27,459 bases of DNA from Geodia barretti (lineage: Eukaryota), in assembly GCA_030341885.1 (NCBI GenBank), contig CASHTH010003779.1, positions 72,806-100,264 of the forward strand, written 5' to 3'. Of this stretch, positions 10,390 to 10,479 are shown piece after piece. The notes beneath the pieces are model-generated. The model was given only the letters and a program-made list of their open reading frames with translations. It ran no database searches and was not told the origin of the DNA. The number at the start of each line of letters is the position of its first letter. Positions within the stretch are counted from its first letter, which is position 1. The translations under genes and the position numbers were made by a program.

Positions 10390-10479
10390 GTGCTCTCTGG
10401 AGTCAAGGAAATCAACCGGACAATATGAGAAGGGAGGGATAAGGGAGGAAAGAGATGGCGTGTGTGAAAGAGAGGATAT
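10390..10479 (-). other. SMC3: U12-type (AT-AC) intron between SMC3 exons 17 and 18
   Basis: 5' splice site ATATCCTCT matches the U12 consensus RTATCCTTT. The branch site TTCCTTGAC lies 13 nt from the 3' end. The intron ends in AC. The exon junction restores conserved SMC3 sequence. Confidence 0.7.

Follow-up and report, generated by a model that had tools for sequence, protein, structure and literature searches.

Intron 18 of the SMC3 gene in the 27,459-nt stretch of Geodia barretti DNA analyzed here (the window) is almost certainly a U12-dependent AT-AC minor intron of a demosponge SMC3, orthologous to the minor intron of vertebrate SMC3. A U12-type AT-AC intron at 10390-10479 had been proposed in a sequence-only reading of the window, and the splicing signals, the transcript of a close relative, and the conservation of the site agree on it. 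By direct reading, the intron runs from 10479 to 10390 on the minus strand in the context ...CAG CTG GAC C/ATATCCTCTCTT...GATTTCCTTGACTCCAGAGAGCAC/AG CTG GAG GGT AAA..., where slashes mark splice sites; with wider context, this becomes CAG CTG GAC C/ATATCCTCTCTTTCAC…GGTTGATTTCCTTGACTCCAGAGAGCAC/AG CTG GAG GGT AAA GTC. The intron is in phase 1, and the C at 10480 joins the AG at 10389-10388 to form the codon for Gln698. Its features are as follows.

10390..10479, minus strand: U12-type AT-AC intron (SMC3 intron 18), 90 nt, phase 1; excised in the transcript, with a unique composite motif and with homologous introns at nine other loci and in Marchantia

10471..10479, minus strand: U12-type 5' splice site ATATCCTCT, intron positions +1 to +9

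10402..10410, minus strand: putative U12-type branch-point sequence TTCCTTGAC, from its sequence and its conservation among demosponges

10390..10401, minus strand: spacer TCCAGAGAGC plus the terminal AC, purine-rich and without a polypyrimidine tract

10412..10414, minus strand: TGA, in frame in the read-through translation of the intron, a premature stop in the event of intron retention

The 5' splice site ATATCCTCT matches the consensus ATATCCTTT at eight of nine positions, as had been claimed, and departs from it at +8 (C for T). In a scan of the window, it was the sole ATATCCTY on the minus strand and the sole RTATCCTY at an exon end. The putative branch site TTCCTTGAC conforms to the TCCTTRAY box found ~8-20 nt (optimum, 10-15 nt) from a U12-type 3' splice site, and its predicted branch adenosine at 10403 lies 13 nt from the last base of the intron, the spacing given in the sequence-only reading. 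That reading also placed 12 nt after TTCCTTGAC and then a separate AC; the length holds, but the AC (10391-10390) is part of it, leaving 10 nt plus AC. This spacer contrasts with the 28 GT-AG introns elsewhere in the gene, which end in pyrimidine-rich tails. The branch site is the sole TTCCTTRAC in the 27.5-kb window, and on both strands ATATCCTY and TTCCTTRAC are otherwise absent or nearly so. The composite motif ATATCCT-N(40-70)-TCCTTRAC-N(6-16)-AC has one match in the window, exactly at 10390-10479 on the minus strand, and ATATCCT...TCCTTRAC...AC was found in none of 100 dinucleotide-preserving shuffles of the window. Because the motif is unique in the window and absent from the shuffles, the intron 18 signals are real and above chance. 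A second candidate U12-type 5' splice site, GTATCCTC at 21633 on the minus strand, was rejected as exonic, lying 20 nt upstream of a normal AAG/GTAAGA donor.

The host gene is, judging by its predicted product, a complete demosponge SMC3, the ATPase subunit of cohesin. An SMC3-like signal was first seen from ~16.2 kb to 6.5 kb on the minus strand by six-frame translation and guide alignment, and spliced alignment of a transcript contig (L004) supports an mRNA extending over 16636..6110. Intron junctions were settled by gapped rescoring and frame checking. The parts of the gene that concern intron 18 are listed below.

6541..16467, minus strand: SMC3 coding region, with ATG at 16467 and the stop codon ending at 6541; 30 exons, 29 introns, 1206 aa

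10480..10629, minus strand: exon 18, ending with the first base of Gln698; junction refined

10320..10389, minus strand: exon 19, consisting of the last two bases of Gln698 and LEGKVTQVLGDLQKTETKQIQLK; junction refined

The first coding exon is tiny (MHIKQ). The sequence-only reading located the junction correctly but assigned it to exons 17 and 18; once the MHIKQ exon is counted, it separates exons 18 and 19, making this intron 18 of 29. The product has the full-length SMC architecture of N- and C-terminal ATPase halves, coiled coils, and hinge, with Pfam matches to SMC_N (residues 2-1184, 239 bits) and SMC_hinge (residues 522-634, 93 bits). The 120 listed database matches were all SMC3 or SMC/hinge proteins where named, and otherwise hypothetical or unnamed. 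Among the matches listed, animal proteins were 52-97% identical to the window SMC3; the closest named species was the freshwater demosponge Ephydatia muelleri (68%), several transcriptome proteins reached 66-76%, and a JGI protein (P0069) was 97% identical. A first homology search, restricted to the junction region, had returned full-length matches that were only ~46% identical.

Several other features of the SMC3 introns and of the neighboring genes were noted.

13431..14735, plus strand: intronless ORF of 434 aa, antisense within SMC3 intron 9 (14872..13122, minus strand), the only long intron of the gene (1,751 nt); Pfam match to RNase_T/DEDDh exonuclease at 32.6 bits against a curated cutoff of 24 bits

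9612..9976: minisatellite of 73 bp, five copies, 95% identity, filling most of SMC3 intron 21 (449 nt)

5093..5308: perfect 54-bp tandem repeat, 4.0 copies, 100% identity, in the interval that separates SMC3 from the Calx-beta gene downstream; one minus-strand frame is open through it and reads as VPFSEVSLYISNGGLADR repeats

~1..4800, minus strand: multiexon gene of Calx-beta-like repeats, downstream of SMC3

~23000..16700, minus strand: at least one further multiexon gene, between the Kelch-type gene and SMC3, which holds the exonic GTATCCTC at 21633

~26958..23450, minus strand: upstream gene of BTB/BACK/Kelch-repeat type, a putative family assignment made by eye, whose first coding exon is long (an open segment of 375 aa, starting MDTSHTD…) and precedes several Kelch-like exons

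The RNase_T ORF appears to be a conserved nested gene. Opposite-strand RNase_T ORFs are present at three related loci (L001, 2704-3723; L002, 1378-2307 and 2445-3401; L003, 3016-3972), a few kilobases upstream of the hinge exons, where the 5' exons of SMC3 lie; only for the window is nesting within an SMC3 intron established. These three loci also share the SMC3/Calx-beta synteny, with Pfam matches to NIDO and Calx-beta. Within the Calx-beta gene, the peptides encoded by about 2454-2098 and 664-284, and likewise by 2756-2496 and 876-706, are almost the same, suggesting that part of the gene was duplicated recently. The gene presumably resembles sponge aggregation-factor-type proteins.

The junction itself is documented by L004, an intronless contig of 4,204 nt that encodes P0069. 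By blastn it aligns to the window in 30 collinear blocks at about 94-100% identity (~96% of nucleotides overall). Because block identity is in this range, L004 comes from a very close relative, and from a genome other than that of the window, and because all 29 introns are precisely missing from it, we take it to be RNA derived. Exon 18 corresponds to L004 2111-2262 (window 10630-10479, 96.7% identity), and exon 19 corresponds to L004 2261-2332 (window 10390-10319). This relative's transcript joins window position 10480 to 10389, matching at 52 of 52 bases once 10479..10390 is removed, and thereby supplies the cDNA alignment across the junction that had been proposed as a check. A shared CA at the junction leaves a 2-nt ambiguity with three possible placements (CA-CA, AT-AC, and TA-CA); GT-AG and GC-AG are impossible among them, and AT-AC is the sole recognized pair. 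At the nucleotide level, the SMC3 junctions thus comprise 28 GT-AG introns and one AT-AC intron, intron 18. The spliced product reads ...HQLD-Q-LEGK... as encoded by L004, in agreement with the ...LRHQLD-Q-LEGKVTQ... predicted from the sequence, and 12 SMC3 homologs, including transcriptome-derived sponge proteins, align without gaps over the junction.

The splicing signals are also what is conserved among demosponges. Three ORF calls on metagenome-assembly contigs run across the homologous intron and thereby led to loci L001-L003, which are syntenic with the window (SMC3 followed by a NIDO/Calx-beta gene). In a five-way demosponge alignment of the window, these loci, and Ephydatia (L007), the four other loci carry C or G/ATATCC(T/C)…CCTTRA(C/T)…AC/ at the same codon, and the Ephydatia intron is likewise AT-AC, at the same column, and in phase 1. 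The demosponge introns are 78-129 nt long, with branch-to-3' distances of 11-13 nt. Across the five loci, ATATCC, CCTT.A, and AC are the only invariant intronic blocks, and the intron body is unalignable or CA-repeat. Departures occur, with ATATCCCC as the 5' splice site in one relative and CCTTAAT as the branch site in another, so that the match to the U12 consensus is good without being perfect. Variants at the R and final positions of the branch box (G/A and C/T) are presumably tolerated, as U-A or U·G and G-C or G·U pairs with U12 snRNA. In L003, the next exon opens with AA (Gln CAA), so the boundary reads AC/AA and lacks any AG acceptor. By alignment, this is the pattern expected if purifying selection acted on the U12 signals alone.

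Separately, the orthologous AT-AC intron can be read through in frame, without a stop, in L001 (6001-6546) and L002 (6001-6399). Retention there would add residues to the coiled coil and leave the protein untruncated; a retained intron in the window runs into the TGA.

That minor introns keep their positions over long evolutionary distances is well documented. We mapped the SMC3 intron in other lineages by placing each species' own protein on its own genomic locus, and every species examined has an intron at the same alignment column and in phase 1. The termini are as follows.

Sycon ciliatum (Calcarea): G/ATATCCTTT and TTCCTTGAC-N15-AC/, 284 nt, U12, AT-AC

Thunnus (two assemblies): C/ATATCCTGT and TTCCTTAAC-N10-AC/, ~2.3 kb, U12, AT-AC

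Branchiostoma lanceolatum (L010, 12468-12925): G/GTATCCTTC and AACCTTGAC-N9-AG/, 458 nt, U12 signals with GT-AG termini

Nematostella vectensis (L009, 19935-21022): G/GTAACA and TTCTTGATTTTCAG/, 1,088 nt, U2-type, GT-AG (GTAACA…TTTTCAG)

Marchantia paleacea: G/ATATCCTTA...GACCTTGAC-N7-AC/AG, 300 nt, AT-AC, phase 1, same gap-free column

RTATCC is retained at the 5' site in Sycon, amphioxus, tuna, and Marchantia. In tuna SMC3, direct peptide matching places the sole RTATCCY at an exon end at the homologous codon and phase. Because the Marchantia intron occupies the same gap-free column in phase 1, SMC3 intron 18 predates the split between plants and animals. The SMC3 minor intron is very old, with the same site, phase, and AT-AC termini in a liverwort, two sponge classes, and vertebrates. 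Two type changes are seen at this ancient position, namely, a subtype switch to GT-AG in amphioxus and a U12-to-U2 conversion at the orthologous site in Nematostella.

Among plants, the Marchantia intron is the one seen whole. Gene models of Brassica cretica, Marchantia paleacea, and Cryptomeria japonica stop at this column, reading '…Q DIL…', which is the translation of G/ATATCCT; in Brassica cretica, the locus is cut off beyond the 5' splice site (N followed by an opposite-strand gene) and provides 5' evidence only. These models bear out the expectation that GT-AG gene finders would misannotate the exon pair. The Brassica and Cryptomeria models end by reading into the intron, the Marchantia SMC3 annotation (L013, 1-7291) is split into three gene models, and a fused Leersia model shows a gap of 16 aa where the two exons meet (P0194, P0191, and P0126 are the affected plant models, including that of Leersia). 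With a gene finder restricted to GT-AG, the SMC3 model will come out truncated, split, or gapped at these two exons. This annotation warning is the main practical value of the observation, which opens no new question.

Three other explanations were weighed. The first is that the major (U2-dependent) spliceosome removes the AT-AC intron. U2-type introns with AT-AC termini, although rare, do exist, the U2-type intron of Nematostella indicates that the major spliceosome can serve this very site, and terminal dinucleotides alone do not set spliceosome type, a point reportedly made by Dietrich et al. in 1997 (in the reference list of PMC7507305). However, U2-type AT-AC introns have an ATAAGT-like 5' splice site and lack the TCCTTRAC box, whereas the demosponge introns conserve internally only ATATCC, CCTTRA at 11-13 nt from the 3' end, and the terminal AC. 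Intron 18 also lacks a polypyrimidine tract, and experiments reported for human SMC3 (PMC4667643; bioRxiv 10.1101/2020.08.06.239418) show that splicing of the orthologous vertebrate intron depends on the minor spliceosome. We consider removal by the major spliceosome very improbable.

The second explanation is that the true junction lies elsewhere, with GT-AG or GC-AG termini. We enumerated every GT, GC, or AT donor against every AG or AC acceptor at the junction and found frame-preserving GC-AG, AT-AG, and very short GT-AG combinations, so 10479/10390 is a frame-compatible junction but not, as the sequence-only reading had it, the only one. For example, a GC-AG intron from 10487 to 10395 (93 nt) keeps the frame, is stop free, and would give ...RHQAQLEGK.... 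The same reading stated that the region holds no GT donor, which is incorrect, since two GT dinucleotides lie deep inside intron 18 at 10421 and 10416. Used as donors, they would give frame-preserving, stop-free GT-AG introns 24-60 nt long, and the protein would gain 22 extra residues, which in relatives are CA-repeat or not conserved. The CCG/GTTGAT site at 10416, named beforehand as the junction that would overturn the AT-AC assignment, is ruled out by the relative's transcript and by the intron of 24-27 nt that would remain. That transcript matches at 52 of 52 bases only with 10479..10390 removed, any other junction breaks the gap-free homolog alignment, and the alternative sites are not conserved in L001-L003. 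As 10479/10390 alone fits both the transcript and the alignment, we give a different junction almost no credence. Just as little can be given to the idea that the region is unspliced (a pseudogene, an assembly artifact, or read-through), which the in-frame open introns of two relatives and the ORF calls that read through them (P0047 and P0054) might favor, but read-through in the window meets the TGA at 10414-10412, the 1206-aa SMC3 is intact with all of its domains, and the segment is missing from the relatives' transcripts.

Under the preferred assignment of intron 18 to the minor spliceosome, its removal probably depends on U11, U12, U4atac, and U6atac. The window's sponge probably has a minor spliceosome, because the signals are conserved among sponges; an Rfam scan of the window gave no matches, including to snRNAs. 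The U11/U12 di-snRNP would take the intron as a unit, with U11 pairing to ATATCCTCT and U12 snRNA pairing to TTCCTTGAC (core TCCTTGAC) and bulging the branch adenosine at 10403. The U4atac/U6atac.U5 tri-snRNP would then enter, and U6atac would displace U11 from the 5' splice site. After branching, selection of the 3' splice site would depend on how close it lies to the branch point (13 nt here; 11-13 nt among demosponges) and not on a polypyrimidine tract. Cleavage after AC would join C (10480) to AG (10389) as Gln698 and leave the coiled-coil arm uninterrupted; if the intron were not removed, the in-frame TGA would yield a truncated protein.

A further possibility concerns why the subtype has persisted. 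Slow A-type splicing might act as a throttle on cohesin dosage, so that AT-AC termini have been held from plants through sponges to vertebrates for this reason and not as a neutral frozen accident. We regard this as unlikely. In this scenario, the human counterpart of the A-type-specific step would be the one dependent on CENATAC/TXNL4B. Retention of the intron leads to a premature stop in the window, and the open introns of two relatives would allow a comparative test.

Introns of this kind, and the orthologs of this one, were known before, as SMC3 is a recognized minor-intron gene. Human SMC3 is on the list of minor-intron genes (PMC7507305), with one listed minor intron of 1,588 nt (hg19 chr10:112356309-112357896) that is retained in Roifman patients with RNU4ATAC mutations (PMC4667643). 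SMC3 is also among the mitotic regulators showing retention of A-type (AT-AC) introns upon CENATAC depletion (bioRxiv 10.1101/2020.08.06.239418). One survey that inferred ancestral minor introns included Porifera among its taxa (PMC11347168), and the main texts of two pan-eukaryotic minor-intron surveys make no mention of SMC3 or of individual sponges. The comparison with U12 intron catalogues that had been suggested thus comes out in favor of the assignment, as human SMC3 is a published A-type minor-intron gene and the only U12-type intron of tuna SMC3 lies at the homologous codon and phase.

The closest known system is therefore the vertebrate SMC3 minor intron, of which the window intron is, on the alignments, the ortholog; the vertebrate intron is both catalogued and experimentally supported. 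The two share the gene, the alignment column, phase 1, AT-AC termini, and a 13-nt branch-to-3' distance. In tuna, the sole U12-type intron (C/ATATCCTGT...TTCCTTAAC-N10-AC/GT) shares its column and phase with the window intron, and identity with the human intron rests on tuna and the literature, with the tuna and human introns inferred to be equivalent. Retention of the vertebrate intron accompanies deficiency of RNU4ATAC (Roifman), of CENATAC, or of RBM48. The host here is a demosponge, the vertebrate intron is far longer (~2.3 kb in tuna and 1,588 nt in human versus 90 nt in the sponge), and the split codon encodes Arg in vertebrates (by alignment, the human-equivalent residue is that in …NIE[R]INNE…) versus Gln in the sponge. 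Land-plant SMC3 (TTN7 orthologs), a minor-intron gene conserved between human and maize, is similar in its AT-AC, phase 1 intron at the same gap-free column in Marchantia and in the Brassica and Cryptomeria models that read into G/ATATCCT at the column of the sponge intron, but its coiled coil near the site is only ~35% identical. The Branchiostoma lanceolatum intron matches in position, phase, RTATCCTY box, and a CCTTGAC 12 nt from the 3' end, and it differs in having GT-AG termini, the commoner minor subtype. Finally, the 28 U2-type GT-AG introns of the sponge SMC3 are also short spliceosomal introns of the same gene, and the U2-type intron of Nematostella occupies the identical codon position and phase, but U2-type GT-AG introns have GTRAGT-like 5' splice sites, a pyrimidine-rich tail, and a YAG acceptor and lack the ATATCC and TCCTTRAC boxes that distinguish intron 18.
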